A stretch of 64,000 nucleotides of DNA from Candidatus Omnitrophota bacterium (GCA_023248155.1 JAHFFE010000007.1:4401-68400); one strand, 5' to 3'. Shown: positions 735-46,912, numbered from the stretch's first letter. The notes: generated by a model from the letters alone, not told the origin. Numbers and translations are program-made.

Positions 735-796
735 TGCTATAATTATTTAGCGATACCATCCGCACGAAAGACCAAATCTAATTCAAGGAGTTTTCC

Positions 797-3217: not shown

Positions 3218-3232
3218 TTCATTAACAGTGTC

Positions 3233-3290
3233 ATCCTGAGAGTGTATTTGCTCAGGATCTTAAGATGCTGAGCAAACGCTAACTCAGCAT
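3233..3290 (+). repeat. Two tandem near-identical hairpins in the GH94 3' UTR
   Basis: Hairpin 1 is ATCCTGAG-N10-CTCAGGAT (3233..3258). Hairpin 2 is ATGCTGAG-N10-CTCAGCAT (3265..3290). The stems differ by one compensatory base pair. Confidence 0.5.
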
Positions 3291-3303
3291 GACAGCCGTA
3301 TCC

Positions 3304-3340
3304 GGGGTGCTAGGAATTCCTAGCACCCCTTTTTCTTTTT
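3304..3340 (+). terminator. Rho-independent terminator downstream of the GH94 gene
   Basis: A perfect 26-nt palindrome GGGGTGCTAGGAATTCCTAGCACCCC is immediately followed by TTTTTCTTTTT. Confidence 0.8.
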
Positions 3341-3389
3341 ATAGAACTATTCGGTTCTTGTTAGTCGTGGAACAAATTTATAGGTAATC

Positions 3390-3418
3390 TTGACTTTTTA
3401 AAAGGATTCAGGTATATT
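3390..3418 (+). promoter_or_regulatory. Sigma70-like promoter for the giant-protein array
   Basis: TTGACT (3390..3395), an exact 17-nt spacer, then TATATT (3413..3418). This makes the TTG at 3419 an implausible start codon. Confidence 0.55.
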
Positions 3419-3445
3419 TTGTACAAAGGGGATACCTATAAGAGG

Positions 3446-5197
3446 ATGATTATCAAGATATCCAGGATAGGGTTCATTTTTATATTCCTTTCTTTTTCAG
3501 GGACAGCGATCCCGTCTATCTACGCGGTCCAGGAAGAAGGCCCCAAAACTTTCTGGGAAAGCCATGGTAAAGTAGAAGACGAAGAATCCGCGCCCGGTTT
3601 CAGCGGTGAATCGTCGATCGATACCGGATCCAAATTCCAAAAGCCCGACCAGCCAATCCCATTAACACTTGAAAATCTTCGCATTCCCACTCAGGACGGT
3701 TCCCTCAAAAAAACATATTCCGCGCGCGAGCCGTTGGTGATTCATATTCAGGACGCGCATGCCAACTATGAAGCGCAGAAACATCTGGCCAGTATTCTGG
3801 AATATCTGGTGGTCACGCACGGTCTTTCACTGATCCTCGTTGAGGGCGGCTCCCGCAACGATTCGCTTTCCTATATGCGCACCTACGCGCCGATTGAGAA
3901 ACGCAAAGAAGTCGCCGAAGAATTCTTGAAGAGCGGAAAAATCTCCGGTGAAAACTACCTGGACCTGACCACCGACTACAACTTTACCGTTTATGGCATC
4001 GAGAAACCGGAACTGTACGACGAGAACATGGAAGCGTTCTTCAGTGTTGAAAAAGTCCAGCCGCAGGCGCTCTCCGCGATGAAATCGTTCCGCGAGGCGG
4101 TGGAAAATCTCAAGCAGACGATCTATCCCGACGAAGTCAAAACGCTGGAACTGCGCGAGCTGGAAGTGAAGGAAGGGCGCATCCCGCTGGCCCAGCATTA
4201 CCAGTCTTTGGCCGATGAGGCCGGCAAGCGCAAAGTGGCGCTCGACGATAAAACTTATCCGAACCTGCTCAAATTCATCCGCGCCAGCGGCATGGAAAAA
4301 GAGCTGAACTTCAAAACGGTCGAAACCGAGCGGACCAAATTTCTGGAAGCGCTGACCAAATCACTGCCGAAGCCGGAAATGGACAAACTGCTTCAGCAGA
4401 GCTTGGATTTAAAGAAAGGGCTGGTGACGCCGGCCTCATTCTACGGCAACCTGCGCGGGTATATGAAGCCGGGGCAGAACGCCGAATATCCGATATTGGC
4501 CAACTACATTGAGTACCTGGCGCTGTTCGAGGCGATCGACCACGCGTCACTGTTTACCGAGGTCGAAAATTTGAGCGACCAGATTAAAGACAGCTATTTC
4601 AAGGAGAAGGGGCAGCGCATATTGGCCAAGGCGGCTAAAGATGTCGGTGTGCTGGAAGATTTACTCGAGCTGAAATTAACGCCCGACAGCTACGACTATT
4701 ACCGCACGCACCGCAAAGAGTTTAAACCCGATGAATGGGCCGATAACCTGCGCGCGCTGGGCAGCCAGCAAAATCCGCCGATGACGCTGCTGCTTTCGCC
4801 CGGCCCGCTGAACGCGGCGATGCCGGCGATGAGCAGTTTTTACGAGGTGGCGCGCCAGCGCGACCAGGCGATGATGGACAATGCGCTCAAGCAGATCAAG
4901 GAATTCAATGTTCCGTTCGCGGTGCTGATTGCCGGCGGGTTTCATACGCCGGCGTTTGAACGGCTCTTTAAAGAACAGAAAGCGTCATACGCGGTAGTTG
5001 CGCCCAAGGTCAGCAAAGTGACGCAGGAAGACACCGATAAATACCACCGCGTGCTCAAAGAAACGTATGTGCCGATGTCGGAGAAATACCGGCAGAAGCA
5101 GGGATTGCCGTCGTCGTCGCTCGGTGCGGCTTCCGTGCAGACTCGCAAGACAGCGACAGCTTCATTAACTGAAACAGGGGCCGCTTCCGAAGGGTAA
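3446..5197 (+). CDS. Exported protein 1 of the array (584 aa from ATG 3446); possible TraB/GumN-family fold
   Basis: The N-terminal hydrophobic segment IGFIFIFLSFSGTAIPSIYA|VQEEG is a compact version of the motif shared by the next four genes. HxxH (IQDAHANYEAQKH) and C-terminal FAVLIAGGFHTPAF weakly resemble TraB/GumN (FxxVGAGHLxG). The start is uncertain: 3446 is the first ATG after the promoter. Confidence 0.6.
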   Translation: MIIKISRIGFIFIFLSFSGTAIPSIYAVQEEGPKTFWESHGKVEDEESAPGFSGESSIDTGSKFQKPDQPIPLTLENLRIPTQDGSLKKTYSAREPLVIHIQDAHANYEAQKHLASILEYLVVTHGLSLILVEGGSRNDSLSYMRTYAPIEKRKEVAEEFLKSGKISGENYLDLTTDYNFTVYGIEKPELYDENMEAFFSVEKVQPQALSAMKSFREAVENLKQTIYPDEVKTLELRELEVKEGRIPLAQHYQSLADEAGKRKVALDDKTYPNLLKFIRASGMEKELNFKTVETERTKFLEALTKSLPKPEMDKLLQQSLDLKKGLVTPASFYGNLRGYMKPGQNAEYPILANYIEYLALFEAIDHASLFTEVENLSDQIKDSYFKEKGQRILAKAAKDVGVLEDLLELKLTPDSYDYYRTHRKEFKPDEWADNLRALGSQQNPPMTLLLSPGPLNAAMPAMSSFYEVARQRDQAMMDNALKQIKEFNVPFAVLIAGGFHTPAFERLFKEQKASYAVVAPKVSKVTQEDTDKYHRVLKETYVPMSEKYRQKQGLPSSSLGAASVQTRKTATASLTETGAASEG

Positions 5198-5226
5198 CGC
5201 TCAGCCAGGAGAGAGATAAAAATCCA

Positions 5227-8200
5227 ATGAGAATATTTCAGCGGGAAAGATATCGAACCATAATTGCCTTCATTACAATCCTTTCTATTTCCTTTACCCA
5301 AGCTTTGCCTGCCTGGGCTCTGCGCCCTGGGATTGAAGGCCGCTCCCAAGGTGGTCTTGAAGAAAGTCTCCGCGGCGGTACAGCACTTTCAGCTTCTTCT
5401 TCCACTGCTTTACAGGCTGTTTTTTCCGCGGTCGGTCAGATTGAAGATCAGGAGGGCCAACTTCCTGCCACCACGCGGGAGATTGTCATCTCTCTGCTCG
5501 ATCAATTAGAGCAAACCGATCCCACGATTGCCGCTAAGGTGGGCAACCGGGCAGCTGTTCTGTCCCAGATGGACGAACTATTATCCAAAGCTCCAAATGA
5601 AACCTGTCTGACCTGCGGAACGCACGCCGTTTCCAATGTCGCTTTTTCCAGCGCTGAGCGGGCAAAGCCGGAAGGATTACAGTCGGATCGTTTTAACGAT
5701 ACCGAGGTGTTAACTGCCATTTTGATTGTCCTCGATCTGATCAACAGCGGCCGGGTTTTATCGCTATCCGAATCGGATGGGCATCAGGTTCTGGCCAATT
5801 CCATGCTTTCGCTGCGTCAGGCGCTGAATATGCTTGAGGATCGGTTGCCCTCTCAAGACCGGAAGTTATGGACGGGGGCTGAGATTAAACAGGCGGATAT
5901 GGAGAGGCTGCTGAAGGACGGCTATCAGGTTGTCGCGCATCTCGATGGGGATCACTTCGTGCAGGTTACCCGCGTTGAAGGCGGGCGAGTCTGGTACAGC
6001 GAGCCTCGTACTGCGCAGTTTGACGCTGAAAGCCAGCTTTCGATTCGTGATTTTGGCAAACGCTGGGGAAGAGGCGTTGTCTTAACCAACGGGCGAATTC
6101 CTTCATCCAGAACCACATTGGCTGATTCCGCGTTATTAAATTTGCAGGGCTGCTGCGGCATCAACACTGTTTTTGGACAGAATGGCGGAGTTCGTTCCTT
6201 GCTGGACGCGCTGCTTCGTTTGAAATACCGGGCTCCAGACAATACCGGCATCGCCGTCATGACGGAAAATGGGATACAGGTGGTCCGGGTGGGCAAGGAT
6301 GTGCAGGGACATGGAGACGGGGCTCCGGATACGATGGTGGCATTACTTTACAATAATCCGATTTATCCGGAGGCGGTTCCGCTGGCGGTGGAGTGGGGCA
6401 AGAAAAATAGGGCGGGCCAACAGTTCCATACCGAATTAGAGAAAGCAGTAAAGGAAGGAATAGATGATTTTAGAGAGGCGTTAAAATTGTCCAATGCGCC
6501 GCGAAAAGAGACTCTCTTGAAATCGGCCGCCGGGCATTTTGCCCGAGCTGAACAGTATAAAGAACAGCTGACGGTGATGGCTGTTCAACAGGTGCGTGAT
6601 ACCGGGAAAAAACTGCTGGACGATGAGGGTTTGCCGGATCGGCGCGCTGAATTAAAGGGAGATGCATCTACGCTGCGGAACTTGTTTAGTACGGGCATAG
6701 ACGCTGTTACCGTTCATATCGGCCAGGTTGGTGGTATTTGGGCCGGTGATCAATTTTTAATTCGCCATGATAATTTGCGGCAGTTAGTTGAGAAGATCTC
6801 CGCCGCGTTTGGCCTTAACGAAGAGTTTGTCCGCCTCTTTTTGCGCGTGGAGTTATCCAATGTGACCACCGAGCGGTTTGGAGAGAATTCAGCTCAGGCG
6901 GGCGCGGTTTTGGAAGTATTTGACCGATTGTCTTATTCTGCTGTTTTAGGGACACTGACGAATGACCAGCAGGCGGAATGGGATCAGAAAGTGATGAAAT
7001 ATTTGCTGGGGCGCTGGCTCAAAGTTCCGTCTGATTTTAATGTCGACGCAGTACGGCATGTTTTTCGAGCGCAGGCTTCTTTGCTTGGAATGATAAGCCC
7101 TCGCGATGAAAACCCCAGTCTGCATCCTGAATTTCTAAGTGAACTGGCAAAAGAATTTGATCGGCGCATGCCTTCCAGGAAGGGCCAGTTTATGGCCTAC
7201 TGGAAACGTGAACGCGATCTGAATCAGCCGGGGCATGCGTTTGCCGCGCTAAATGAGGTTTTTCATAAATGGGCGTACCAATACAAGGTTGACCTGTGGG
7301 ATGCGAATTCAAAGAGCTATAAACAGGTTCAGTTGCTGGATCAACAGCAGTACAGGGTGCTTGCCGGAACAGGACAGGCTTCCGCCGCCACGGTTCGATT
7401 AATTGGAGAATTGGTGGTTGGCCATGGCCGCTGGGCCATGACCGGAGATCCCAGCCGCTGGAATGCCCATCCGCATGAGAGCAGGGACATGGTTCTGGTT
7501 CATAACGGTACGATTAACGGAATTACGAATGCCACGCTGAAAACCGAGCATAATACCAATGGATTGGCGGCTGCTTACCATGAGAATGGCAACCTGGAAG
7601 GTCCTGAAATTTTAACGGATACGCGGATTATCGTTACGCATTGGCAGTATTTGCAGGATAAAGCGGCCGCGGATCTCGAGTCAGGCCGCATGGGAGAGGA
7701 TTTGATCTATGCCGATGAATCGGACGAGGGAACGGCGCTTGGAACGCGGCTCGAAAAGAAAGGCGAAGGCGACGATGCTGTTACCGGATCAAAAACAACC
7801 GGCCGCGTGCGGGAATGGAACGCCATTGTTCGGAATTTAAGGTCGTCGGGCCGTCAGCATATTTCCGAGAATGAAGTTGCCGTTCGTTTGGCGATGACGG
7901 AAATGGCGGAGGGGTCCGAGATCGGCGTCAGCGCCAACAGTTTGCATGACCCCTTTGTTACTTACGTTGTCAGCCATGACCGGCCGGTGGATATTGTGAT
8001 TCATGAAGGCAAAGTATTGGTGACTTCCGACATGGCGGCCGGCATTGCGTTGTTTCCGGCAGCCGATGTTTCGAGAGCGGCTCAGGAATTATCTAGAATG
8101 CACCGCCGGCTCCAGAGCGAGCTGGAGGATCTCCGCCAGAGGCGGGATGAGAATGACCTTACCCCCGAAGAATATGTGGTCGAGGTCAAGCAGGCGTTTG

Positions 8201-11200
8201 CCGCTTACAAAAAATCAGCCAACCCCATCAAAGAAAAATTCAAGATCGATGTCTATCATTTGAAAGAGTTGAACAAATTCGCCGCTATTCGCAGGGTAGT
8301 CAACAGCGCGGGTGAAATTGAATTAAGCGTTGATATTTCGCATTTGGACGGAACACCGCTGACCGAAAAAGAATGGAATAAAGAGGCAAAATTTGAAAAA
8401 GCCAAAGTAGATCCGGATGTCGGTGTTAAGGGCGGGTACGCCACCTTTATTGAAAAACACGTGGATGAAATCCCGTCGATTTTGTTGGATGACGCCACCT
8501 CGTACATTGAAGTTGACGACGGTCGTCCCGCGCGCGTTCACCTTCCGGATATTAAGACCGATAAACTGACCGGCCGGTTCGGTCCCAAGCTTGAGCGTCT
8601 GCGCCGGGTTTTCTTGATTGGTGTCGGTTCTTCGTGGCGCGACGCCAAAATTGTCGAACAGATGTTTGGCGATTTGCTGCAGGGGGTGGAACTGGTGCAG
8701 ATTTCCGTTCAGGATCCGGTGGAAATTCAGAACCTTGGGATTAAACTGAACCCGGAAACTGATCTGGCGATCGGCATGAGCTGGTCCGGATCAACGGCAT
8801 CGATGGTCAAGCTGTTCAACCGTCTTTCGAGCGGAGAAGACCAGGGCCAGGATGTTCCGTTGATCGCCGTGACCGGTAAGACTTCATCGGATATGGCCAG
8901 CGTTGCCAAGAGAAGCGCGGGGTATGTGGATGTGCAGTCCGGGCCGGAATCATCGGTAGCAACCACGAAAGGATTTGAATCGGTCCTTTACTGCCTCTGT
9001 TTGCTGGGCGTGCAGTTAAGCCAGATGCAGGGCAATGACAGTTTAGTATCGGCCCGCACCCAGTATGTTCAGGAATTATGGGATTTGGTTGACCAACACA
9101 TGGATGCATTGGTGCGGGAACCCGGAAAATCTTCCGGACAAAAAGAACGGTCCACCGCTAAAGTTGAAAATCCCCAGGAACGTTCGAAAGTTCAAAAAGT
9201 GGCCGATGCCTGGCATAGCCGGCAGAAAGTGCTCGTCATTGGAAGCCGCGCCAATCCGGTTTATGTCGAAGGGGAACTTAAGGCGGAAGAAATTGCCTGG
9301 ACGGTCGGCAAGGCGGCGGATATCCGTGATGACAGCTGGCGGTCTTTGCTGGAAAACAGCGCCGATCCCCATGTGACCGAATCGGAGCGAGTCGCCACCA
9401 TTTTTAACATGACGGATCCGGGCACGTTGGATCAGTTTATAAAGGCCATTCGTGAAGTGACGGATCAGGGTATCCAGGTGGTGGTCCAGACATTTCAAAA
9501 AGACAATTCCCATTACGCTGAACTGCAGCGGATGGAACAAGAAGGAAGAATCGCCCTGTTTGAAGTTCCGCGGGTTCGCACGACGCTGCAGGCGTTGGTC
9601 GACGCGATTTTCTTTTTTCAATTTTCAATTGCGTTTGCCCGTTCGCACGGGTTAACAGATCCGCAGATCGATAACCCGAGAAACCTCGCGAAATCAGTCA
9701 CTGTCAGCGGCGCTCGCTCATTGGAAGAGCTGGTCCGGAACTCGGCGACCCGCGTGGTGAAGGTGGACGATATTACTGGGCGGCTGGATGCTTTGCAGCG
9801 CATCTACTCTGTCTATCGGAGCGGTTTAGCCGCGCGATGGGCGGAGCTGCGCTCCGCTCGTCAGCAGGCCGGCGCCCGCCTGTCCGTATTGTTGAATGGG
9901 CTTGTCCGGGAATGGTTTGGAAAACTGGCCAAGCCGAATGAACCGCAATCTCTCTGGCCGGAGGCATCTCAGCGTGATCGCGCTGAACGGTTGCTTGCCC
10001 GGTTTAAACAAGCGGCCAATGCCGATAATCCGACGGCTAAGGTATTGATTGTAACCGACGAAGAAGCCACCCAATACGCCGGCGAAGCGGCTGCCGGCGT
10101 CTATGGTTCCCGCGAGGTGGTTGTTTCAGGCGAACATAAAGATCTCTATGATGCCGATAAAGGCATTAAAATTCGCGCCGGAAAATGGTATTACCGTGCT
10201 TCGTATGACGTTGTTGCCGAGAATTACACGCTGAAGTTTGACGCGAAGCTGAATCCTTACGCGAATCCAGGCGAGCAGCCGGCGGATGCCGGTCCCATCG
10301 TGATTGTCAAAGGACAACAGCAGGTTTCTCTCAACGGAAAACAGTACCGCGTGGATCAGGGCTCGTTTCTCAAGGATCCCAAGGAAAAAGACAAGCTGGT
10401 TTCCGGGCTTCAGATGCGGGCTGAACAGCCTGACCTATTGCTGGCCGGCGTCGAAAATATCCGGGTTGTTCGGGCAACGGATCCCAATGTGGATCAGATG
10501 GTTGATCAGGATACGGTGGTGGTGCTGGTTTCGCGCGCGCGAAACAGGGGATCGGACAATAATAAGGACACGCTCCTTACAAAGCCCGATACCAGGAAAC
10601 AACTTCCTATTCCTTCGAATGCCCAATCCGAACAGACTATGCGCGCGTTGGCGGATCGTTTGGCAAAAAAAGCGATCCCTCTGGTGACGATTGCCGATCG
10701 TGATTCTCTCTTGGAGGATCCTTCATTGGACGAAGTTCGGGTCACGCACTTTTCGCTGGGGAGTGATTTTACTTCATCAAGCGTTTATCCGTCGACTTAT
10801 GTGGCATTGCTGGCGGCGGGTGTCCGGATGGGAGATATCTTGGGGCGTGATGTCCAGCCGGTGGCCCGCTCTCTGTTCGCGGTGCCTGGCATGGTGTCGA
10901 ATGTTCTGGGTTCAGAGCAGCTTCAGAAGCATCTGGAACAGGTTTTGTATCGAGTTCGCGGGTATAAAAAGGTGCATATTATCGGCGGCGGCCAATCGTA
11001 CGCCGATGCTAAGGAATTAGCCCGGGTTCTTTCAACGCTGGGTATTTTTGCTGAAGCCCAGTTGAATGACTCTGCCTGGCATGGGCCGTTGGCCGCGGCG
11101 GATCCTAACCGCAGAAAATACGGAGAACCGGGATCGGATGCCTACAAATATAAATATGGCGTCAATGACGGTTACGATACCGATGGCGATACATTGGTTG

Positions 11201-14200: not shown

Positions 14201-14382
14201 GGCTGTTGGAACAGTATCCGGCTGTTACGTCCGATGCAATTCAGGATTTCGGAATAACGAAACCGGTTTCTCAAACCGTGGTACAGATTTTTGAAATTCT
14301 GTTTGGCATCACGCCGGATGCCGCGCTTCAGTTCCAATTAGAACAGTTAGTTGCCCAGGCCACGCTGGCCTTCCAGGCATAA
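5227..14382 (+). CDS. Giant exported protein 2 (3051 aa) with an embedded GlmS-like module (class II glutamine amidotransferase + 2 SIS domains)
   Basis: An uninterrupted 9.2 kb ORF with a GGAGAGAGA SD. The N-terminus is TM/signal plus AWALRPG..GLEE. Internal matches to E. coli GlmS by eye: [23 protein letters not shown] (MCGIVG..LRRLEYRGYDSAGLAV), [29 protein letters not shown] ([29 protein letters not shown]), [11 protein letters not shown] (ETDTEVIAHL), SIS motifs [14 protein letters not shown] and [11 protein letters not shown] (VASTKAFTTQL), and C-terminal [10 protein letters not shown], identical to the GlmS C-terminus. Confidence 0.85.
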   Translation: [3051 protein letters not shown]

Positions 14383-14386
14383 AAAA

Positions 14387-20224: not shown

Positions 20225-20229
20225 TCGTA

Positions 20230-26200: not shown

Positions 26201-29200
26201 GCCCGAATCGCCGTGAATTGGTGGCGGCCGCGATGGAACTTTTGTATCTGACGATGCTGATCGATAAAACGGCCGAATTTGCCGCATTGCCATCCGACGA
26301 TGTCGATGCTCGCCAACTTTGGCGCGCGCTGTCCGTTTATTACGCCGAAACGCTTGACGACCATTTTTATGAATATAATCCCTGGGCGTTTGACCCGAAG
26401 CGCGGTTCAGCGTTTGTCGATTATTATGATGATGTTGGCGTCCTTAAACCGGAACATCGTGAAGAGCTGTACGGTCTTTCGTGGGCGCATCATCGCGCCG
26501 CTTATTCCTATATCCGCGCGCTGGTTCGCGCAAAAACCGATTACGGCAAACTTCCAAAAGAGGAGTATAACGCGTTGCTCGGCGATGTAACGCTCGGCGC
26601 GACTCCCGATCAAGATCAATTAGCCGTTCAGGCAATCGGCGCCGGAGCGCCCGGTCCCAATGAGTTGTTTTGGCGCGCCTATGGCCAGTACCGTGAAATT
26701 GCTGTGATGCAGAATGACGGGTTCGGGGTGCCTGTGGTGTTTGACCAGTTTGATCCCAATACTCCGGAAGTGATCGACGCGCAGCACCGGCTGAACTTCG
26801 CGTTTGTTTCGCCGGTAGGGCGGACCCATTATTCGCGCGCGCTGATGTCGGCCGCGCAGATGGGATCGAACATTTTTATTACGCGTAACGCCGTCGTGAC
26901 CGAAGTTGCCGGTTCCAATGGAAAAGTCGCCACGATCTCCGACGCGCAGTTTTGGTTGACCGAAGCGCAGTACCGCGAAGCACTGATTCGTTTCCGCGGC
27001 ATGGCCCCCAGCGATGCCGATGCGCAGATCGCGCAAGACCGTGCAGCCGGGCGGATTACGCCGCTCGGGATTCGCGTAGCGGCCCGCTTTACGCAACCGG
27101 TGGTTATTTCGGCCGGAGTGTATCTGCACCATCATTCGATTGAGCCGGAATGGATTGCCGCCGGTTATCCGGCCACCGACAAATCGCCGGTGGTTTATGA
27201 AATCAGTTACGACAAGGCGCTCTATCCGAAAATTTACAATCCGGCCGCTGATACAGGCGTTAACCTTCCGCCTGAGATCGATTGGATGCAGACCGATACC
27301 GACGATAGACCCGAAACTGATGTAAAGCAAGATATCGCCAAAATGCTAAGGCCGTTTGCCGAAACGCATGGCATTATCGTTGCCAAAGGTTCTTCTGAGT
27401 CGGGCGCGCGCAACTTCCGGCGGTTCGATTTCTTCAATGACAACGGTTTTAACGAACAGGTTCTTTCGGAAGCGGTCGATTTTATTTATGAAGTGTCGAA
27501 GGGTCAGAATGTCACGATCCAGCGCGCTATCATCGTTACGCCGATCGCCTGGATGGACCCCTCGGGCGTGAACGATTTTGTCAGCCGCCAGATCCGCGAT
27601 CATGGCGTGCCGGCGAATATTCACCGCTATCCGAAAGACTGGGTTTACAGCACGCAGAGAATTATTATGTCGGCCGGTATGCCGAAAAATCTGAATGATC
27701 TTGATAATCCTGCCAACTGGGAAGCGTCGCATCCGATCAGCTTAAGTAGTTTGCAGGTGGCGACCAATGTAGGGCGGCAGGGAACGCTGGAACTGCTTTC
27801 TCCCGATTTAATCCGTCCGGAATTTCGCGATCAGTTTATCCAGGGATTGCAGGATGCGGGGCGCCGTTCAATGGCAGCGATGGCCAAATATGCCCGGCAA
27901 TATTGGCATGAAGTTTATTTGCCGGCTTATCGCGCCGCGCATGATGGAGCCGATCCGCCCGAATTCGATGCGACCGGTGTTCCCTATTGGTGGCCGCGGT
28001 ATCTAATGCTCGATTTTCTGGCCGAGCCGGTTTTTTACCGTAATGGAGTGGAAGCGGTCGGCGCCCGTGTGGTTGATGTGATTCCCGGTGACGCCGCGCG
28101 CAATGTTTCGGCCCGTTTCGTTTTGCAGGATGCCGACGGCAACCGGTTCGATGGCGAAATCCGCGGGTTTAAATATTGGCTGCTGGAACCGAATGTCGGC
28201 ATCGGATTGTGGCCGAATCTTTGGAAGCGGGAAGAACTTCACGAAAGAGCGCGCGCCAAAGCGGATGGCAATCGTCCGATGGATTGGAACCAGGTTGGCG
28301 TCAGCGACCGGGTTGTGCTTGGCAATTATTTGGCGGCCGGCGAAGCGTTTATGAAAGCAAAATTCGGTGGTGATCATTATGGTCCGGGCGGCCCGCGCCG
28401 CGATCCTCCGCCGATGGGTCCTACTTCTGCGGACATATCGCCGCCAGCAACGGCAGTCACTTTCGTGCAACCGCTTGTTACGGATGTTACTTCTCTACAG
28501 CGTGTCGAAGAATTGAAGTTGGATCAAGATTTAAGCCACCCGCTTGCTCCGGTGATCGAAATTCAGCAGGAACCGGCGTCCGCTGAGCAGTTGAGGGCGT
28601 TATTACCGCATGCGCAGACATTCGCTGTCGTTACCGGTAAGCGGACGCTGATGAACCACCATGTCTATCCGTTTGAGGTAGGTAAGGGAACTGCGGCGGT
28701 TAATGTGATTGGTGTGAACGACGAATGGTTGACTGCGGATGGAAAAGCCACTCGGCTGATGGTCTACAATCCGGAGACCGGGCGTTATCTGGAGTTTCCT
28801 CTTGAGCAGCCGGTCGCCATTAACTCTGCGTTCATTGTTGAGTTGCCGCAGAGCCGCGAAGTAGAACGTCATCAGGAGTTAACGCAGCTGCTTGCTTCCA
28901 ATGGCGTGCGTGTTGTTAACCAGGCCGGTGAAGCACAGCGGCATATGGATGATAAAGCCTGGTTACGGCATGAGAGGATTCCTGAGGTGTTGGTTCCCAC
29001 CGCGATGGTTGTGGAGAAAAGCTCCTCTACTGGGGAGGCCACACTAGGGATCATCGCACGGGGAAGTCCTGCCGGAATCATCATTCAGCCTCGGTCTGGA
29101 ACGACCGAAGGTGAAGGAGTCGCATGGTTTTCCGCCGCGGATACCGATGGACAGTTGGCGCATTTGCGGAATTTATTGAAGACCGGCGATGCGATGGTCT

Positions 29201-31983
29201 CTGCTTTCCGCGGTAATGTAACGGTGGGTGGCCGGCCGCTGGTACTGCGTTTCAACTCTATTTCAGATCAGGTGATCTCCGCGTCGGCAGTGGTGGGTCA
29301 GCCTGATTCCCGAGTCGCTTCTCTTGGGCAAGGCGGTGAAAATATTCCGCTGGCTGAAGCGCTTACTCAATTAACAGGACCAGATAACGCATCCGTTGCA
29401 ATCACTGCCGCTGATTGGCAGCAAATTCAGCAATCGGCGCAGAATGTTGCCGATGTGCTCAGAACACCGGTGGCCGGCATCGATATGGTACTTGAAACAA
29501 CACCGGATGGTCATATTCGCGGTGTTTTGATTGAAGCCAATGCCCGTCCCGGCACACTGATCTTGGGCGAGACGGTCCAGTTCCCAGCATCGGATGCCGT
29601 TGAGGATGCATCCATTGAAAGCAGTCCGGCCGCCCCGGTCGGCCCGGCATTTTGGACTGCTCTCGGAATTTCCCAAACAACCACGCGACCAACGCCCTCT
29701 TCAATCACTACTTTGTCACAATGGATCGATCTGTTGCGGAGTGGTCGAACCGATTGGATGACACCGCACTATACGGGAGATTTTGAAGCCCATCGGGTGA
29801 TTTTGGATGAATGGATCAGCCAAGCGCTGAAACGGGAAGTCCCGGGAACATCCGGCACTCCGTTGTTTGATCCGAATCGTCCGATCGCTATAACGCGAAC
29901 TCCCGGCCGGTTTCTGTTTCCGGTGACAGGCCGGCATCTGGATTATTTGGGCGGACAGGGCGGATCGATCGGATCACCTACCCAACAGGAAACGGTGCTC
30001 ATTGCGCAGGAAGTGGAAGGGTTAAATGGACAGATTGAAATTTATCAGATAGTTGCCCCTGATCCGTCTGTTGCCGAAGTCTATCCCAATAATGGATTGG
30101 GCGCCAGAACGATTGATCTAAATAGCCCCTTTGTAAATCCAGACCGGCCGATTCGGACGCTGGCCGATTGGGATACCTGGGCCAAAACGGTGACTGATCA
30201 GAGAAGAGTCGCCCGCGCCCCGGATACCAAAGTTAATTACGCGGACGATTTGGCCGCGGCAATCATCGCGTTTGCCCGCACCGAGCTCGGAGATCCTTCA
30301 GGTAAAATCCGCGCTTATCTGGACCGGATTGCCAGTGAAGGTAAGGGTTTTCGGTTTGCGCTGGCCAGCAACCTACCGACTGGCGGCGGATTGAGTTCCT
30401 CGTCGGCGGTGGCGATTGGATTCGCGCAGACATTGGCCCAGCTGGCTGGCGTTCAGTTGACACATGATCAACTGGTTAATTTTGGTTATGCCGAACGATT
30501 TTACGCCGGTACGCAGGGTGGCTTAAAAGACCACGCCCATCTTACCGGCGATACGGGATATCTTGGGGTTGCTCCTACGCGCACCATCGCGACGATGAGT
30601 CCAATTCCAGGCGCGTCGGTGTTGTTGCTCGATTCCGGCGTTTCGCGCGATAGAGCAATAGCCCTTTCTCCCAAACTAGGCAGCAAGGGCAATGACGAAC
30701 AGAATATTAAAGGTCGTACGGCTACTGGCTATGCATTGGTCAATCTCTTGCTGAGGCATATTCATCCTGAGTTAACAGCCCGGATTGCACCCGATACGCA
30801 AAATCCGGATGGTTATCTTCGCAATCTGGTTCCCGGTAATCCGGGTGGAATGTCGGTACAGGAAGTTTACAAATTGCTGGGCGAAATTCCGGCAGAAGGA
30901 CTCACCCGTAAACAAATGTATGAATTAATGCCGGAATTTAAGTCTGATCTTGATCGTTTATTTGCCAAGGGTGAGGAGCCGCCTGAGCCGTACGCGCTGC
31001 GTGAAATGGCATTGTTTTTCTTTGCCGAAGAATCGCGCAACTGGGAAGTGGTTCGCGTGCTTAACGCTTTGAAAGCGGATGAGATTAATTCGGATCAGGC
31101 GTTTGAACGGTTGATTGAAGTCGGACGCGCCGCGCACAATGGCGACCGCGTCACCCGTTATGAAATTACGCCAGGTGATCAGGGTTCTTTGAATGTCAAC
31201 GCGATCGGTTGGGATTGGCATCTTTCCGATCCGACGCTCGATCAGTATATCGCGAACTCTGATTCCAACGAAGCCGCGCTTTGGCGCCAGGCCGGCCGGC
31301 TGGAACGATCGATTGAACCGCTCGACCGGCTGGTGGATCTGGTTGAATATTATAACCAGCAGCATGGTGGAAATTCCGATGTTGCTGTCGTGATGGGCGC
31401 CGGTTTGGGTGGGACCGTCGGCGTTTTGGCCCGTTCTGATTCTGTCGATGGATTAACGCAATTTCTGAACGAGCATTATTACCAGCCGTTAGGCTTGACC
31501 CATGGACCGGTTATCCGCGCGCAAGCGGGTAAGGGTGCCAGTGTATTGGTTTCCCCAACGGCCGGTCTTGAGGAATCGGCTACCAAGGTTGCTGTTCCTT
31601 CGGCTAGCCGGACAGTGTTCAATGGTCTTGGCGTGGTGGCCGGACCGACCACCACCGGATTGCAGTGGGGGTTGGCCATTGCGCGCAATGGTAAACAGCG
31701 CGACGGCCGGCCGGTGCCGGTAGTTTTTCTGGTCAATAACGATGAGCAGCGCGCGCAGTTGACGAAGGCCGGTTTCGGCGATTTTATTTTCACAAATGAA
31801 TCGGAAGCCATCGCGGCGATTACCGGTTATGGCGTTAAACCGGTTCTGGTTGGTGTGGGTCAATCGGTGCCTGAATCGGTATTCGTCTTGTTTGCCGAGT
31901 TATTCGGCATCGAACTTTCTAATGTGCAGGCCGATTTTTGGCAGGGCGCTTATGCTTCCGCGGCGGTCGATGTCAACGCGTAA
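20230..31983 (+). CDS. Giant exported protein 4 (3917 aa) with a UDP-glucose/GDP-mannose dehydrogenase-like catalytic motif and a C-terminal GHMP-kinase-like domain
   Basis: It starts 5 nt after the preceding stop. The N-terminus has the TM plus SYALRVQQPVGGEAASGLEE. GPTTGYCIPKDLLFKMF matches the UDPGDH catalytic-Cys motif GGSCxPKD. GFRFALASNLPTGGGLSSSSAVAIG matches the GHMP kinase PxGSGLGSSAA motif. Confidence 0.85.
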   Translation: MNLNPKKIISGLIVGTFFFSQVTPSYALRVQQPVGGEAASGLEERLISRPSQGFATRVGAVRGAVQTARRSVGAKQASVAWNLKDGQLSPIAWASGPALPNATTVVPAVLSRAEQGLKWLYGKRSSVAVVENSLRNDLLGDSVSVELRANHGMTLDFDRGDNAVRLDTTIAEELFDSTDIDQNGLSVLYGIGFFYQLQLVAGRSPREAAHLTLALYQNISDTERAALLSVLRSPQIDHGNQWARFFEEGSKPADYRGIDSLELETRLETETNTDTRTALEAVVNHRDKLVSWLLGQQLIDLPYDRTKMLEAMTAFETNVDAGRSLAFEAVKGFDRKVEQANADRVGTMIREEWLPDNMPYPTLLAGRYSRAFGNQGGLAANAVYVEANPGIRDLAQLLETEAKAEQLLAELKALESSVPARALPKFRKAEQRIEALLVQLGPGIARIRLLVSGQAAALTQYKGALQQIRENITIFYREAARVIESARDTANAAGGKGILRRLTQNVSKPFQAAQEKVSEFAAQSGRLATITNDLETAALQAPSQPAAFSVLLQRPSPTGSINFNANELVEKPEQEPALRELARLGGQNSYTSPSYDWVSEATDIIEAAPLFIYERTVVLEDGKSVTVFEVDQEGLEQTVRQMADYWALNIDKTIDSEHLALAREIVVAADPVLSGRAGQLTGQGISVEAAHRQVIYEASEKRPELLRLVGTTAAWLAAEFDRRITEVEKHTEAEWQKDHFIDRMESLRDVVVTGRSPSELLSLAQDAIGSHTAEVDRLTPLALRRRRPMPAFHLLTTQAPGLVQGFFQAVLEEEMALRNVAKAKGLDDEVRDRVKRYQQRIAELGRTVIQEFGYQPILEQKKSELPASMADDEKERQAIQRTIADHMPLQQELAKLAVLVEFAEAEGKPMDPSHPDPSQVEEIISGQTVELTAEAVRAVWQRNQLDPELANKVIALDSTQTDEAAIAQAIHQTPIYEEELQSNIRWLARQRAIDQLSRQHAELYLAEQAKSNGINPPNWYRNHTSLAQTTARREAIAAHNLQGLLMDPRYAYSNGALKETSEGRLRPTGARKRYHLIYGPSRVNLGAGERDSVEVWPQWVGVTDPLAAAHALAFYQLINFNPEVRTIMEAENLKVSENQWTAMVRAVRNAEAYFVGRLGVGDIEDLAHQFNRRNGLPGAWLKDGESYAAGPTTGYCIPKDLLFKMFVATALDGRKMTQIGVPRHLQAGVFKMMSEILAAQANFDTVTDWEAWAAQTMLSESSLRERFGAADGGKLNQLFSQYVSVTGGVTAFHLTKMLQILQMVGVPSPTLVPGKNLHDALWAQWADLKLTLAAEQVNRSLIFPMTREIPDGVAEARRLNPGVNIAAPEQASIHMFGTYKGDDVEAPPPDVRFSWTMRAFMILSGYGKEVALSLDEDGQLLARLSWDGFLPDSTDEEDIKVARFVAQKFAGKDQFGAEDFALVEKLKQDFPHHTTVGNITITVVPGVSAEDLLGFNAETKLLLGDRAAAVRELLISKGINTGQITANAVLRHEFPAEWIPLLDLDAKEQTALKEAVAGGIHPLVLQQRGPGTDFEQDLQAQDVAVFSVTHPGIVTMDPSKLRDLMQLGRPNGLQSALVAHDMVAQGRHRVWFDRDVMLWYAAARGIDAEGNPIQNWSDRDQQGRKAVYKAFGYGEDTYRPLLGTDLRQETARQERRAAELFELVRRVADSDLTTQVTAITALQQQLDELRTQLRTEAELAIKYEQAMLSFRRNKPRDQIIRGSLVALASGKPVEQFDFVDWLAVGGIYLLNGAPQARQDEVRSVFDRAGQKMASGLEENPNVALLIRPRLEPTSLSRAERKGEMFSVKATETFAEKAVARRKGLALQAARQSALQAREEGFRSIEPVNSVDGILPALNEARAALNGMTEQVANRSGNAAQIHRQSGQVMGTAVAVLNRLNQELTPGPDREEVAKKIQALSKGRELDEKAWSSFGGTYEDAGVLARFFEQAGPNRRELVAAAMELLYLTMLIDKTAEFAALPSDDVDARQLWRALSVYYAETLDDHFYEYNPWAFDPKRGSAFVDYYDDVGVLKPEHREELYGLSWAHHRAAYSYIRALVRAKTDYGKLPKEEYNALLGDVTLGATPDQDQLAVQAIGAGAPGPNELFWRAYGQYREIAVMQNDGFGVPVVFDQFDPNTPEVIDAQHRLNFAFVSPVGRTHYSRALMSAAQMGSNIFITRNAVVTEVAGSNGKVATISDAQFWLTEAQYREALIRFRGMAPSDADAQIAQDRAAGRITPLGIRVAARFTQPVVISAGVYLHHHSIEPEWIAAGYPATDKSPVVYEISYDKALYPKIYNPAADTGVNLPPEIDWMQTDTDDRPETDVKQDIAKMLRPFAETHGIIVAKGSSESGARNFRRFDFFNDNGFNEQVLSEAVDFIYEVSKGQNVTIQRAIIVTPIAWMDPSGVNDFVSRQIRDHGVPANIHRYPKDWVYSTQRIIMSAGMPKNLNDLDNPANWEASHPISLSSLQVATNVGRQGTLELLSPDLIRPEFRDQFIQGLQDAGRRSMAAMAKYARQYWHEVYLPAYRAAHDGADPPEFDATGVPYWWPRYLMLDFLAEPVFYRNGVEAVGARVVDVIPGDAARNVSARFVLQDADGNRFDGEIRGFKYWLLEPNVGIGLWPNLWKREELHERARAKADGNRPMDWNQVGVSDRVVLGNYLAAGEAFMKAKFGGDHYGPGGPRRDPPPMGPTSADISPPATAVTFVQPLVTDVTSLQRVEELKLDQDLSHPLAPVIEIQQEPASAEQLRALLPHAQTFAVVTGKRTLMNHHVYPFEVGKGTAAVNVIGVNDEWLTADGKATRLMVYNPETGRYLEFPLEQPVAINSAFIVELPQSREVERHQELTQLLASNGVRVVNQAGEAQRHMDDKAWLRHERIPEVLVPTAMVVEKSSSTGEATLGIIARGSPAGIIIQPRSGTTEGEGVAWFSAADTDGQLAHLRNLLKTGDAMVSAFRGNVTVGGRPLVLRFNSISDQVISASAVVGQPDSRVASLGQGGENIPLAEALTQLTGPDNASVAITAADWQQIQQSAQNVADVLRTPVAGIDMVLETTPDGHIRGVLIEANARPGTLILGETVQFPASDAVEDASIESSPAAPVGPAFWTALGISQTTTRPTPSSITTLSQWIDLLRSGRTDWMTPHYTGDFEAHRVILDEWISQALKREVPGTSGTPLFDPNRPIAITRTPGRFLFPVTGRHLDYLGGQGGSIGSPTQQETVLIAQEVEGLNGQIEIYQIVAPDPSVAEVYPNNGLGARTIDLNSPFVNPDRPIRTLADWDTWAKTVTDQRRVARAPDTKVNYADDLAAAIIAFARTELGDPSGKIRAYLDRIASEGKGFRFALASNLPTGGGLSSSSAVAIGFAQTLAQLAGVQLTHDQLVNFGYAERFYAGTQGGLKDHAHLTGDTGYLGVAPTRTIATMSPIPGASVLLLDSGVSRDRAIALSPKLGSKGNDEQNIKGRTATGYALVNLLLRHIHPELTARIAPDTQNPDGYLRNLVPGNPGGMSVQEVYKLLGEIPAEGLTRKQMYELMPEFKSDLDRLFAKGEEPPEPYALREMALFFFAEESRNWEVVRVLNALKADEINSDQAFERLIEVGRAAHNGDRVTRYEITPGDQGSLNVNAIGWDWHLSDPTLDQYIANSDSNEAALWRQAGRLERSIEPLDRLVDLVEYYNQQHGGNSDVAVVMGAGLGGTVGVLARSDSVDGLTQFLNEHYYQPLGLTHGPVIRAQAGKGASVLVSPTAGLEESATKVAVPSASRTVFNGLGVVAGPTTTGLQWGLAIARNGKQRDGRPVPVVFLVNNDEQRAQLTKAGFGDFIFTNESEAIAAITGYGVKPVLVGVGQSVPESVFVLFAELFGIELSNVQADFWQGAYASAAVDVNA

Positions 31984-34900
31984 TACACTTTTCCAAAAGA
32001 TCTCAGGCGCCGTTCTTATCGGCGCCTTTCTTTTTGTGAACGCGGCGCCGGGTTATGCACTGCGCGCCACTCAGCCGGTAGTGGGCTCCGGTGCCGAAGA
32101 GCTTAGACAAAAACTTTCCGTCAATAATTCCGTTCCTGCTTTTGCCGGACAGGAGGAAACGCCGCCATCGCCGATTATGGGCCATCGTTTGGTGGAGACC
32201 GGAATTCCGGGTTACCGCCGCGTTGTTTATTTTCTGCAGGACGGTTCTTCGTGGAATGGCGGTGTTGTCCGTTCTGATGTCCCTGAAAATGCGATTGCTT
32301 CGACCGCTTATCTAGCCCCGTACAGTTTTGCGGAAGGGGCAGCGGCGCGATTGGAAGATGGCGCGCAGGTGGCAGACGGATCGGCCGTTATTAATTCGGC
32401 GATTCGTTCCGGCGCGAAGTTGAATGGTTCCGTCGCGGAAAATGCGCTGGTTCATCCGGCGGCCTGGGTTTCGTATTCAGCGCTGGGTCCGGCGTTTGAT
32501 GACGACAGCTGGAGTTATTCGCTAGCGACCGAAAGAGACTCCGAGCTTTCAGTTCGCAATCATTTGGCTTTTTTTGCGCGTAATACTTACCGCGTGGAAG
32601 TCGGTTACAACAGTTCGGTGCGCGGATCGGTTTTTCAAGACAGCGCTGTCGGCCCGGACAGTGATATTTTTGGGAGCGCGTTGGTAATCAGCCGCTGGGG
32701 TGAACAGACCCGCATGGACGGCGGCGTAAAATCGTGGCTGGCGGTCGGCGCGCAGGGCCATGCCGATATTGCCGGCGTTCAGCATCGTCCTGACGGGACC
32801 GAGATTCCGGCCGCGCTGGAAATCGCCGAGGCCGCTTATCAGGGATTGCCGGCCGAACAATATCCCGGCACTCAAATTCACGAGCACCATGTCGGTTATA
32901 CAGAGGCGGTTATTACCAACAGCGTACCGTTAGTCGGTTATACCGCCGGGGAATTAACTGTTACACCTTATCTGGTTCCTCCCATAACCTTATTCGGCGA
33001 TTACACAATTTTCTCGATCTTCGCCGGTTCTCCGAATCCACAGGGAATTAAAACTGACGGCAGGCCGACGCCCGGTGTTATTACGCGCTTGACCGGCGGT
33101 CCCGGCGAACAGAGCAGTCAGCATGGCCGGATTATTTCCGACCCGCTTTCAATTCTCCCCGGATTTTCAAATGTGATCGGCCGTCTGCTGGGATTCCCGG
33201 AACTGGATAATCCATTGGCACTGCTGACCGAACCGGAAGTGACGCATCTGGGCCCTCTCTCGGCTGTCGGCGCCGATGCGCAGCTCGGTTTAAATGGTCT
33301 GGAAGGATGGGGGCAGATATTACCGGCCGAAGCGCGCGGCCAGTTAAGCCGCGGTTCCGGCATTGCGCCCTGGGTATTTTTGTATTCTCCCGAGGTTCTT
33401 TTTTCTTTGATGGGTCAGCTGGCTTCCGGTTTACCTGCGAATGATCAGTCCCGGTACGATGATTTGCCGCAGCGGTTACTGGAATCAGGACTGGCCTTAA
33501 GCCGATGGATGCTCGATCAGGAACAGGCAAAAGACGCGCAAGCCAACGCGCAGGTGATTGAACGGCTTGAGCGGTACATCGCTGGTTTTTCGGCATTGAT
33601 TGAGAGCGAGGCCTGGGCCGGAAAATGGGTGCAGGATGGGGAACTGCGTCACCCGGAACAGTGGCAACGCTATGGCGATCGGTGGGAAACCAGTTCTCTA
33701 AATCTTGCAAACATGCATCGTCAGATTCATCCATTTGCCGATTCGGTTCCGTATACGCAAGTTCCTCTTCGTTACTTGTTGGCGGTTCCCGATGGTGTCG
33801 ATCGTCCCGATTGGAGCCAGTGGACCGGCTACTATCTGAAACCCGAAGACCTTCAGACCAGTCCGCCCACACCGCTCGATCAATTAGAGCAGGTGGATGA
33901 ATCGTTAAAAGAATGGAGAATTATCGGACAGGACGCAAAATTTTATTACACGGTCGAGGGCGGCCGGATCGGCCGTGAAGTCGATTTAAAGATGATTCAT
34001 CCTTCTGCGCTGATTGGTCCCGGCACGGTGTTAATCGGAGCGGCCACTTCGGTGGGCGAAGGGACCCGCCTGCTTCGCGTCATTGCCGATAATACGGTAA
34101 TCGGCAGCGAAACCCATCTGACCGCCGTTTATTCCAGAAGCACTGTTTTTGGAAACGGGATTAAACTGACTTGGGCGAAAACGACCCGCCTGGTGAGGAT
34201 TGGAGATGGCACCGTCGGTTCCTATGTCGGCATCTCGGAAGGGAGTGTCGTTGGAAAAAATAATACCTTTGAGCCATTTGCGCTGGTGATTAATTCCACC
34301 ACGGGACCTAATAACGTGATCGGCATTTCGTTGGTGAACAGCCAGGTTCAGCCTGGTTTCATGGGACGGCATCTTTCGACGGCGGTGCATAACCTTCAGC
34401 AGCAATCGGTTCGTTTTCAAGTCAACGGAAAAAACTATGATTTGAAGGCCGCTTCCCTCAATGTGGCTGGTGGGTTGTTCGTTCAGGGCAATGATAAGAC
34501 CCCGGTTCGTTTGAGTTCGGCTTATCCGCTTTCGCTGACAACGATTGATCCGGGGAATGGACAGAAGTTCGCAGTCGGCGCTTTCAGCGTTCTTAAAAAT
34601 CAAATTCGTCTCGACGACGGGCAAATCCTGCCACTGACATTTCATGCGTTCAATCATGTGGCATCCACTGATCCGCTATTTGCCCAGCCGGGCCGGCACA
34701 ACGACTCCATCGGCGGCGCGCTGGAATTCCCGGGAATTTTTCTGCGCAATTTTATCTATCGGACGAAGAAAGGAATTTATGACGATCTGGCCGCGCAGGG
34801 ATTAACGCGCGAGCAGATTCTTGTCCATCCGCGGATGCTGCAGTCCGATTATATGATTGAGGCGACCATTGTCAGCGCGCTGGTGCAGGTAATCAATCAA

Positions 34901-41524: not shown

Positions 41525-41560
41525 GGTAGGGGGGATTCGCCGATTCCCGGCGTTTAATAG

Positions 41561-45096: not shown

Positions 45097-45109
45097 AAGG
45101 GAATTTACG

Positions 45110-46507: not shown

Positions 46508-46508
46508 A

Positions 46509-46907: not shown

Positions 46908-46912
46908 AGCCG

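Follow-up and report, generated by a model that had tools for sequence, protein, structure and literature searches.

A conserved, predicted export leader and a recurrent five-residue junction motif on the giant modular proteins of an Omnitrophota gene array

Why do giant proteins with different bodies share an N-terminal leader? The question arises from a 64,000 nt stretch of DNA of Candidatus Omnitrophota bacterium (GCA_023248155.1, JAHFFE010000007.1:4401-68400; this whole stretch is called the window below), which contains an array of five genes, g1 to g5. A sequence-only reading of this DNA had proposed that all five proteins carry, after a basic N-terminus and a hydrophobic stretch, a motif P-[SGA]-[YW]-A-L-R ... 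G-x-E-E that would serve as a dedicated tag for sorting, processing, or anchoring. Our analysis separates this motif into two parts: a leader at the N-termini of g2 to g5 that is predicted to be an export signal, and a G-x-E-E motif that, judged from sequence comparisons, is a junction between protein modules rather than a terminal tag. The genes, leaders, and junctions of the array are:

3446-5197, + strand: g1, 583 aa, a TIKI-like putative hydrolase with an ordinary signal peptide of its own (3446-3526) and without the leader motif.
5227-14382, + strand: g2, 3051 aa, with a GlmS-like region, an internal junction AGLEE (13618-13632), and a shared C-terminal domain (CTD; 14014-14379).
5227-5364, + strand: g2 leader, with predicted signal peptide 5227-5319 (..ISFTQALPAWA), L-R-P 5320-5328, and first junction GGLEE 5350-5364.
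14387-20224, + strand: g3, 1945 aa, with a ROK-kinase-like module (Pfam) and the CTD (19811-20221).
14387-14509, + strand: g3 leader, with predicted signal peptide 14387-14479 (..LTLLQAVPSYA), L-R-P 14480-14488, and AGQEE 14495-14509.
14564-14578, + strand: second junction copy of g3, SGFEE.
18236-18250 (directly 3' of the ROK domain), 19799-19813 (directly 5' of the CTD), 19961-19975, and 20156-20170, + strand: internal junctions of g3.
20230-31983, + strand: g4, 3917 aa, with a GHMP-kinase-like module (Pfam) and the CTD (31597-31980).
20230-20361, + strand: g4 leader, with predicted signal peptide 20230-20310 (..FFFSQVTPSYA), L-R-V 20311-20319, and SGLEE 20347-20361.
25669-25683 (SGLEE) and 31561-31575 (AGLEE, just 5' of the CTD), + strand: internal junctions of g4.
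31952-35734, + strand: g5, about 1260 aa, with a left-handed beta-helix (hexapeptide-like) module, ending in AGFEE-YV (35711-35725) and without the CTD of g2 to g4.
31952-32158, + strand: g5 leader, with predicted signal peptide to 32059 (..FLFVNAAPGYA), L-R-A 32060-32068, SGAEE 32087-32101, and AGQEE 32144-32158.

The regular expression P[SGA][YWF]A[LIVM][RKQ], run on the six-frame translation of the window, matched exactly four times (nt 5308, 14468, 20299, and 32048), each time at the start of one of the giant open reading frames (ORFs) g2 to g5 and each time behind a basic n-region and a hydrophobic stretch. In all four cases [AGS]-G-x-E-E follows within 6-13 residues. The starts of two of the genes were corrected, that of g3 to ATG 14387 and that of g5 to ATG 31952 or 31970. 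Thus, the motif is present on four of the five array proteins but not on g1, where the peptide PSIYAVQEEG had been taken for a copy: it contains neither L-R nor G-x-EE, and orthologues of g1 differ in their signal peptides (PLAFAAAEDSPKG, PVFAAADEEPAPK, and others), which rules out g1 as a carrier of the leader. Only an acidic patch after the signal peptide or cleavage site recurs in these orthologues. Among the four window leaders, the DNA identity of the coding stretches is only 47-58%, and each pair has 8-10 identical residues, of which 4-6, half or more, are encoded by different codons. The similarity of the leaders is therefore old and has been maintained at the protein level, in agreement with the sequence-only reading, which had noted that the nucleotide sequences differ.

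The leader is rare and is restricted to N-termini. A 52-position profile was made from the four window leaders and that of protein P0003 (P and L numbers denote family proteins and loci, respectively) and was searched exhaustively against 1.84e9 representative proteins. It matched 35 proteins (clusters at 50% identity) at E<=1e-3, eight of them at E<=1e-10. All 35 matches begin at residue 1-15 of the target, and the full-length targets have 811-4868 aa, almost all of them 1,200-4,900 aa; the short ones are fragments. Chance cannot account for so few matches in so large a search, all of them at the N-terminus. When the leader alignment A1 was used in a word-indexed search of 5.8e9 proteins, 37 candidates came up, none of which scored. 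A search of 5.8e9 proteins yielded just three clusters of g3 homologues, and the leader is retained in them: P0003 is a fusion protein with the N-terminus MKTLQRRNFQSFFAGLTILSVTFTQVIPAWALRPG...AGLEERL, and in P0002 the same leader is located upstream of a mis-called start.

In the 35 leaders, the n-region has a net charge of mostly +2 to +5, about 20 uncharged residues follow, and the median distance to the predicted cut is 31 residues. After the basic n-region the consensus reads ..(F)F-A-x-L-T-I-L-S-F-T-F-T-Q-A-x-P-A-W-A, followed by L-R-P. Before the predicted cut, position −4 is P in 33/35 leaders, −3 is A or S in 31/35, −2 is W, Y, or F in 31/35, and −1 is A in 35/35; after it, +1 is L in 33/35 (M in 2/35), +2 is R in 35/35, and +3 is P in 20/35. 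A charged n-region, an h-region, small residues at −3 and −1, and the lack of Pro at +1 are the sequence features of Sec signals processed by signal peptidase I. The start of the leader is predicted to be such a signal peptide with a canonical A-x-A site and a cut between A and L, and the earlier suggestion of an AxA-type site followed by a conserved mature N-terminus is supported by positions −3 to +2. As far as the aligned sequences tell, this degree of conservation is unusual for signal peptides.

Does L-R belong to the signal peptide or to what follows? In several proteins and loci (P0010, P0029, P0034, L004, L005, and L008) L-R is displaced from A-W-A but persists 8-14 residues upstream of the first GLEE. 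Therefore, L-R belongs to the mature end and not to the signal peptide. Upstream of internal junctions, L-R was found at 8/57 sites, compared with 8.7 expected, i.e., at random frequency, and L-R-(P) is thus specific for the N-terminus; the possibility that L-R...GLEE recurs internally as one unit was ruled out by the same count. On these alignments, the leader is made up of three elements, namely a family-specific signal peptide, the N-terminus-specific L-R-(P), and, after 10-17 semi-conserved residues, the first copy of the junction motif. L-R-P may determine later sorting or the removal of a short N-terminal peptide.

Some later array genes carry a second leader type, ..LLRLSAW.TLQALVAVQ..PPFAYA, followed by 5-25 residues, T-L-R-(A/V), and SGLEE (L090 10391-18094, L088 10409, L002 13252, and L010 20972); L-R and GLEE survive this change of signal peptide. 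In L011 1647-2213 and in P0018, unrelated sequence rich in Cys and Arg comes after the leaders (..LTILS..SQAF and ..TQACPAWA, respectively) and soon ends at a stop codon; these copies are probably frameshifted or decayed carrier genes beside an intact one.

Apart from the Sec type, none of the signal classes compared accounts for the leader. None of the 35 leaders has a lipobox [LVI][ASTVI][GAS]-C with Cys at +1; Cys at −5 occurs in only 8/35, in the non-lipobox context T-Q-A-C-P. By direct reading, the leaders also lack a type IV pilin-like (class III) site, with cleavage between G and F/M in G-F/M-x-x-x-E before the hydrophobic segment; the conserved site lies after that segment. Pfam detected no haemagglutination activity domain of two-partner secretion (TPS) systems in g2 to g5, and no Omp85-type TpsB gene is adjacent: the genes adjoining the giants encode g1 (alpha/beta plus helical), an S8 subtilase, a BatD-like protein, and an OmpA-like protein. 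An NCBIfam scan with the first 78 residues (E<=10) matched no family, Pfam scans of the full g2 to g5 proteins matched no curated signal-motif model (YSIRK, ESPR, or KxYKxGKxW-type), and full-text literature searches for PAWALRP, PSYALR, WALRP, and AGLEE returned nothing relevant. Hence, as far as the library scans and the text search reach, no curated family or paper describes the motif, and the statement of the sequence-only reading that it cannot be assigned to a known sorting system stands.

The second part of the motif behaves differently. The pattern [AGS]G[LQAMVF]EE occurs 2, 6, 3, and 3 times in g2, g3, g4, and g5, respectively, i.e., 14 copies compared with about 0.3 expected from shuffles, and is absent from g1, the S8 subtilase, the GH94 phosphorylase, and every other window ORF of at least 300 aa. 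Across 36 family proteins there are 86 copies compared with 3.9 expected, and the sites, including those of g4, divide into 32 at N-termini and 57 internal ones. A count of enriched 4-mers in the close-clade giants, made without a prior pattern, ranked GLEE first (21 vs. 1.5 expected) and AGLE second. The internal consensus is (P/A-rich)-[PQT]-[AQ]-A-G-L-E-E-[TVA], and the general form is (A/S/T)-G-(L/Q/A/M)-E-E. Codons at these sites match background usage, so that the constraint acts on the peptide, and a function at the DNA or RNA level was ruled out.

The positions of the motif coincide with module borders. In g3, where Pfam places the ROK domain at residues 976-1280, one copy follows at residue 1285, and another immediately precedes the CTD. 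In the window, the leader stands before the g3-type body; in the fusion protein P0003, an internal PTQ-AGAEE takes this place. Among the ends of high-scoring segment pairs in BLASTP comparisons between family members, 154/587 fall within 25 aa of a junction, compared with 22.5 +/- 4.8 at random; the 587 endpoints are not mutually independent, and the effect is about seven-fold. Taken together with the 57 internal sites, this sequence evidence indicates that G-x-E-E is a junction motif at module borders and not, as had been assumed, part of an N-terminal tag. One of the relatives, P0022 (4868 aa), has at about residue 2900 a hydrophobic segment right after a PGLEE junction (..FQPGLEEGGSPRRGILRRAAAGLLTVGASLLILLGS..), which resembles a second signal peptide or membrane segment and perhaps reflects the fusion of two carrier genes.

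The modules themselves are varied. Pfam detected only isolated enzyme-like domains in g2 to g5 (SIS, ROK, GHMP kinase, and hexapeptide/beta-helix); the GlmS-like region of g2 combines a GATase-like motif, read by eye in the translation, with an SIS domain found by Pfam, and the hexapeptide/beta-helix assignment of g5 is a weak Pfam match. Beyond their N-termini, g2 to g5 have no hydrophobic segment of transmembrane quality; one further match on the Kyte-Doolittle scale, at residues 161-179 of g2, contains charged residues. The sequence-only reading had described the bodies behind the motif as unrelated, which does not hold for their ends: g2, g3, g4, and many relatives terminate in a common CTD of about 135 residues with the pattern ..GVIAGP..GLA.G.ALS..PVAFVVEN..EA....ELGT..PV..IQ.LL.NLFGIEL...W..F....LAFQA, always with a junction in front. 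A hidden Markov model from which the window sequences had been left out places it at the very C-terminal ends of g3 (E 3e-24), g4 (3e-19), and g2 (1e-14) and has no match in g5. Leader and CTD together thus place conserved modules at both ends of the giants. A Pfam scan of 14 CTDs gave no meaningful match, either to curated sorting domains (LPXTG, PEP-CTERM, T9SS CTD, etc.) or to any other family, the tails ..W..F....LAFQA contain no hydrophobic helix, and the AF2 model of the domain, with pLDDT 53, is too poor for use of the fold. In g5 and some relatives, other conserved tails are present (..LAALLEAG.YD..FAAKLAQ.AY.LFV and ..FLGIP...S...IA.RS..FW).

Which proteins could act on the junctions? 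One candidate is g1 at the start of the array. Its AF2 model is confident (pLDDT 87, pTM 0.81): a helical insertion of about 300 residues divides an alpha/beta core, and in the fold comparison this core shows the alpha/beta architecture with a parallel beta-sheet of the TIKI fold. A sequence-profile search of the PDB with g1 gave chance-level matches only; Cofac_haem_bdg reaches 14.9 bits with g1 of the window, below the Pfam cut-off of 27.7, and matches weakly in 10/50 g1 homologues (best E 9.5e-6), so that membership in the superfamily rests on fold and not on sequence thresholds. D103 and H105 (D-x-H) are conserved in at least 90% of the homologues, and E133 and H500 (in A-G-G-F-H-T) are invariant. 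The catalytic set of the TIKI superfamily is 2His/2Glu (PMC6254334); in g1, compared by sequence position, the first acidic residue is Asp and not Glu. The spacing of 28 between H105 and E133 equals that of the catalytic H3902 and E3930 of RRSP. On the strength of the model and these residues, g1 is probably an active hydrolase of the TIKI/ChaN/erythromycin-esterase/TraB-like superfamily, which includes site-specific proteases (Tiki and RRSP; PMC6254334 for RRSP) as well as esterases.

The other candidate lies behind the array, followed by two envelope protein genes:

35831-37744, + strand: candidate protease for the junctions, an exported S8 subtilase whose prodomain is of the fervidolysin type and whose C-terminus forms a coiled coil.
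37797-38252, + strand: BatD-like protein, 3' of the S8 gene, possibly in the same operon.
38249-38992, + strand: OmpA-like envelope protein, 3' of the S8 gene, possibly in the same operon.

The S8 protein matches Pfam Peptidase_S8 with E 1.3e-40 (139.9 bits, cut-off 21.8) and carries a Fervidolysin_NPro-like prodomain (E 9e-15). Its nearest NCBIfam models are site-specific maturation proteases (mycosin, QhpE, and PatA/PatG), all far below their cut-offs; for PatA/PatG (TIGR03895) the score is 78.2 bits compared with a cut-off of 421. The end of the array is visible in two loci, the window and L002, and in both an S8 orthologue follows (2/2); the CTD alignment A5 found three metagenome loci. 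BatD is also located 3' of S8 in L002. The proteins g1, S8, BatD, and OmpA-like all have N-terminal signals and would therefore meet the giants outside the cytoplasm. The sequence-only reading had envisaged a co-occurring protease or sortase-like gene. Candidates for the former are present, with the TIKI-like g1 upstream in 14/14 loci and S8 after the array in 2/2, but library scans of the array proteins and their neighbors revealed neither a sortase-like gene nor an anchoring signal of a known kind.

The linkage to g1 was followed across the phylum. The leader as defined here occurs only in the clade in which g1 is at least 65% identical to that of the window, and in all 14 close-clade loci that reach at least about 1 kb past g1 the next gene carries the leader; for P0017, P0024, P0031, and P0033 the contigs are too short for the neighborhood to be visible. 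The g1 family is much larger, with 562 confirmed stretches (one genome per GTDB species), almost all from metagenome-assembled genomes named Candidatus Omnitrophota/Omnitrophica and some from third-party annotation bins labelled Planctomycetia. Its members share the motifs IIHIQDAH.NYEAQ and AGGFHT. In many distant lineages, the g1 domain is fused right behind the signal peptide of a giant protein of 1,700-3,900+ aa (loci L015-L083), and the g1 4-mers HIQD and GGFH each occur 43 times among 90 distant-Omnitrophota ORFs of at least 1000 aa. Although the leader family is small, it suggests that TIKI-like genes are associated with giant proteins throughout the phylum. In distant Omnitrophota, the signal peptides are recognizably related (..LFSKFISGIIAVSFILTSVPVRSYA..), and (D/T)(K/T)-L-R-(P/A/T) comes 0-8 residues behind them; L-R lies within about 30 residues of the hydrophobic region in 11/19 distant array-side proteins compared with 10/60 other signal-peptide-like ORFs.

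The motif statistics, the rarity of the leader and its place at N-termini, its conservation at the protein level, the recurrence at borders between modules, the linkage of the genes, and the TIKI-like fold of g1 are observations; the export route, two kinds of cleavage, and the enzymes that may be responsible are inferred. The array proteins would be exported giant modular multi-enzyme precursors of one Omnitrophota clade, built as "beads on a string" (GlmS/SIS, ROK, GHMP kinase, PGM, beta-helix, and others) with the leader as the first bead. They would cross the inner membrane by Sec, signal peptidase I would cut between A and L-R-P, and linked exported hydrolases, the S8 subtilase at the array end and/or the TIKI-like g1 at its start, would recognize the AGLEE junctions and most likely cleave there, releasing modules; alternatively, AGLEE would serve for docking. 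We judge the chances of this reading of export followed by AGLEE recognition to be even. Several points weigh against it. The AGLEE sites may be docking sites or linkers that stay uncut, and cleavage of the signal peptide was judged by the −3/−1 rule only. The linkage of S8 is based on two loci only. Distant Omnitrophota keep the related signal peptide and L-R but not AGLEE, so that any processing logic would be clade-specific. Finally, ATP-dependent kinase-like modules make no obvious biochemical sense outside the cytoplasm, and sugar-enzyme modules behind export signals are sensible only if they act in another cell, act on other substrates, or are degenerate.

Two other explanations of the conserved N-terminus are each less probable. 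According to the proposal from which the analysis started, L-R-P...G-L-E-E would be read, after Sec export, by a machinery that moves the giants across or onto the outer membrane, and the internal AGLEE copies would be incidental linkers; such a tag would be similar in kind to the Bacteroidetes lipoprotein export signal or to N-terminal TPS domains. The specificity of L-R for the N-terminus and its occurrence soon after the signal peptide in distant Omnitrophota are in line with this proposal, as is the CTD, which shows that the giants carry conserved terminal modules, and one preprint places type II/IV secretion genes near Omnitrophota giant genes (10.1101/2023.11.21.568195). However, the operon has no secretin, Omp85/TpsB, sortase, or exosortase-like gene, no TPS, YSIRK, ESPR, or other curated signal model matches, and AGLEE, the most strongly conserved element behind the signal peptide, is clearly not confined to the terminus; we therefore regard a sorting or secretion tag as unlikely. 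Equally improbable, in our view, is the absence of any dedicated function, i.e., an ordinary Sec signal that was inherited as a 5' cassette, was spread by duplication and module shuffling, and is kept only because very long chains need a good export signal, with AGLEE as an uncleaved linker. In its favor, modules are demonstrably shuffled, the few family members all come from one clade, the generic features of a Sec signal are all present in the signal peptide, and the spacers from L-R-P to GLEE form subtypes that resemble descent groups. Signal peptides normally diverge fast, however, and here the h-region, c-region, and +1/+2 are nearly invariant over unalignable bodies, with synonymous codon turnover. 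An invariant G-x-E-E within variable P/A/Q-rich linkers exceeds the needs of a passive linker, and the strict adjacency of two exported hydrolase genes would remain unexplained.

Far less probable still are two readings that concern the signal itself. A twin-arginine (Tat) signal exporting pre-folded enzyme modules would fit the length of the signal (median 31 aa), its only moderately hydrophobic, S/T-rich h-region, the A-x-A site, and a cargo of enzyme-like folds that are normally cytoplasmic; in about 14/36 leaders, read by eye, R-R stands right before F-(F/L)-A (e.g., RRFFA and RRFLA). However, R-R is present in 0/4 window leaders (g2 RERYRT, g3 KR, g4 KK, g5 QK), none of which has (S/T)-R-R-x-F-L-K, most family members have a single R, and no Tat genes are visible in the window. 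Cargoes of 140-430 kDa would far exceed known Tat substrates. The missing R-R and the cargo sizes together make Tat export implausible. It is similarly hard to credit an uncleaved signal-anchor that tethers the giant to the periplasmic face, with P-x-W-A-L-R-P in a juxtamembrane position. The uncharged stretch of about 20 residues has membrane-spanning length, and a second preprint (10.64898/2026.06.07.730766) reports a predicted membrane association for the majority of very long Omnitrophota proteins. Yet the near-invariant P at −4, A at −3, and A at −1 form a classic signal peptidase I site, and polar T/Q at −8/−7 together with Pro at −4 cut the helical core to about 12-14 residues.

The reading of the giants as exported precursors with AGLEE junctions has partial parallels in known systems. 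YSIRK-G/S signals of Gram-positive surface proteins and ESPR of autotransporters and TPS exoproteins, whose functions are general knowledge, are likewise motifs in or next to a Sec signal that are kept over differing bodies, ESPR often on very large exoproteins. In contrast to both, the leader has no sequence relation to them, its conserved part comprises the late h-region, the c-region, and +1 to +3 instead of the n-region, and it is limited to one Omnitrophota clade. As in the Bacteroidetes lipoprotein export signal and the lipoprotein +2 rule, a short conserved peptide after the signal peptidase cut could set the destination; the leader proteins, however, have no Cys at +1, and their element is L-R-P with an acidic motif further on. 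Tiki acts on mature Wnt after its secretion and takes off the first residues, and by analogy a trimming of L-R-P...AGLEE may be possible. With the Tiki/TraB-PrgY proteases g1 shares the fold and conserved His/Glu, but it differs in its helical insertion and in scoring below the Pfam threshold.

The likeness of the junctions to recognition sequences of cyanobactins and to inter-effector sites of MARTX toxins is limited to their logic. In cyanobactin precursors, the S8 protease PatA cleaves after G-L-E-A-S (PMC4282754), and the giants share with them a five-residue G-L-E-x-x before each cassette and a subtilisin-like protease in the same cluster. Cyanobactin precursors, however, are small cytoplasmic peptides, whereas the giants are predicted to be exported and have 140-430 kDa, and the window is without heterocyclase or macrocyclase genes. 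MARTX toxins are giant modular secreted proteins that are auto-processed between effector domains. Like them, the array proteins are very large, apparently secreted, and composed of exchangeable enzyme-like modules that inter-module processing would release, and a TIKI-fold hydrolase occurs in both systems, in MARTX as the effector RRSP (PMC6254334). Unlike MARTX, the giants have an N-terminal Sec signal instead of a C-terminal type I secretion signal, and their junction motif differs; Pfam scans of g2 to g5 detected no RTX repeats and no cysteine protease domain, and the TIKI-like protein is here a separate gene (fused in distant lineages) and not an effector module.

Very long Omnitrophota proteins have been described in the two preprints cited above (10.1101/2023.11.21.568195; 10.64898/2026.06.07.730766). 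There, such proteins are reported with signal peptides and sugar-metabolism and kinase domains, cutting by S8/C39 is proposed, and one of the two calls the cleavage points unknown. The proteins treated there have at least 10,000 aa and many transmembrane helices, in contrast to the 1-4 kaa encoded by the array genes. Term searches of both found no passage on a common leader, an AGLEE-type junction, a TIKI-like partner, or tandem 1-4 kaa arrays; the word "motif" appears in them once and zero times, respectively.

The organization of the array and its surroundings can be described as follows. Only 4-5 nt lie between g2 and g3 and between g3 and g4, and g5 begins within g4, with an overlap of 14-32 nt; this tight spacing suggests translational coupling along the array. 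Three features lie upstream of g1:

51-734, + strand: ROK fragment.
797-3217, + strand: GH94 phosphorylase.
3304-3418, + strand: probable operon boundary, a hairpin 3' of the GH94 gene followed by a promoter match ahead of g1.

The hairpin (3304-3329) is intrinsic-terminator-like, with an 11-bp stem containing eight GC pairs and a T tract, and the sigma-70-like promoter (3390-3418) 5' of g1 matches at 10/12 positions. The synteny of the pair of ROK kinase and GH94 (cellobiose/chitobiose phosphorylase-like) at 51-3217 is kept in a related metagenome contig (L003 788-4475), and conserved ORFs are also present upstream of g1 in close-clade GTDB loci. Further downstream, the region 40937-49494 is a metal (copper) resistance cluster with genes for an extracytoplasmic function (ECF) sigma factor, a Metal_resist periplasmic protein, a MetA-pathway-type outer-membrane protein, an OEP/TolC-like protein, a multicopper oxidase with a heavy-metal-binding domain, a DUF2231 protein, and a 703-aa ORF. 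At the right end of the window (58000-64000), the G+C content drops from about 55% to 46-50% and the AT skew is strongly negative; this part may be of different origin.

Omnitrophota are abundant, ultra-small, and largely uncultured, and their very long proteins are a recognized puzzle. A border-marking five-residue motif, an export leader, and two linked exported hydrolases form a concrete, testable processing code for one clade, the significance of which depends on AGLEE cleavage being real. The junctions offer a rational way to split the giants into units for structure prediction and expression. In addition, the analysis adds a signal-peptide/leader family that no curated library models, as well as a phylum-wide, helix-expanded TIKI branch with members beside or fused to giant proteins. 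A more far-reaching reading, which is possible but which we put forward only tentatively as rather doubtful, is that one clade of host-dependent Omnitrophota nanobacteria makes exported polyproteins: tandem precursors of 1,200-4,900 aa with one leader would be cut at AGLEE by exported TIKI-like and/or S8 enzymes, and their amino-sugar and sugar-phosphate modules (GlmS-, ROK-, GHMP-, PGM-, and GlmU-like) would be set free beyond the cytoplasm, perhaps on or inside a host cell. If true, bacteria would have an equivalent of the polyprotein processing of viruses or of MARTX effector release, with an undescribed junction code.

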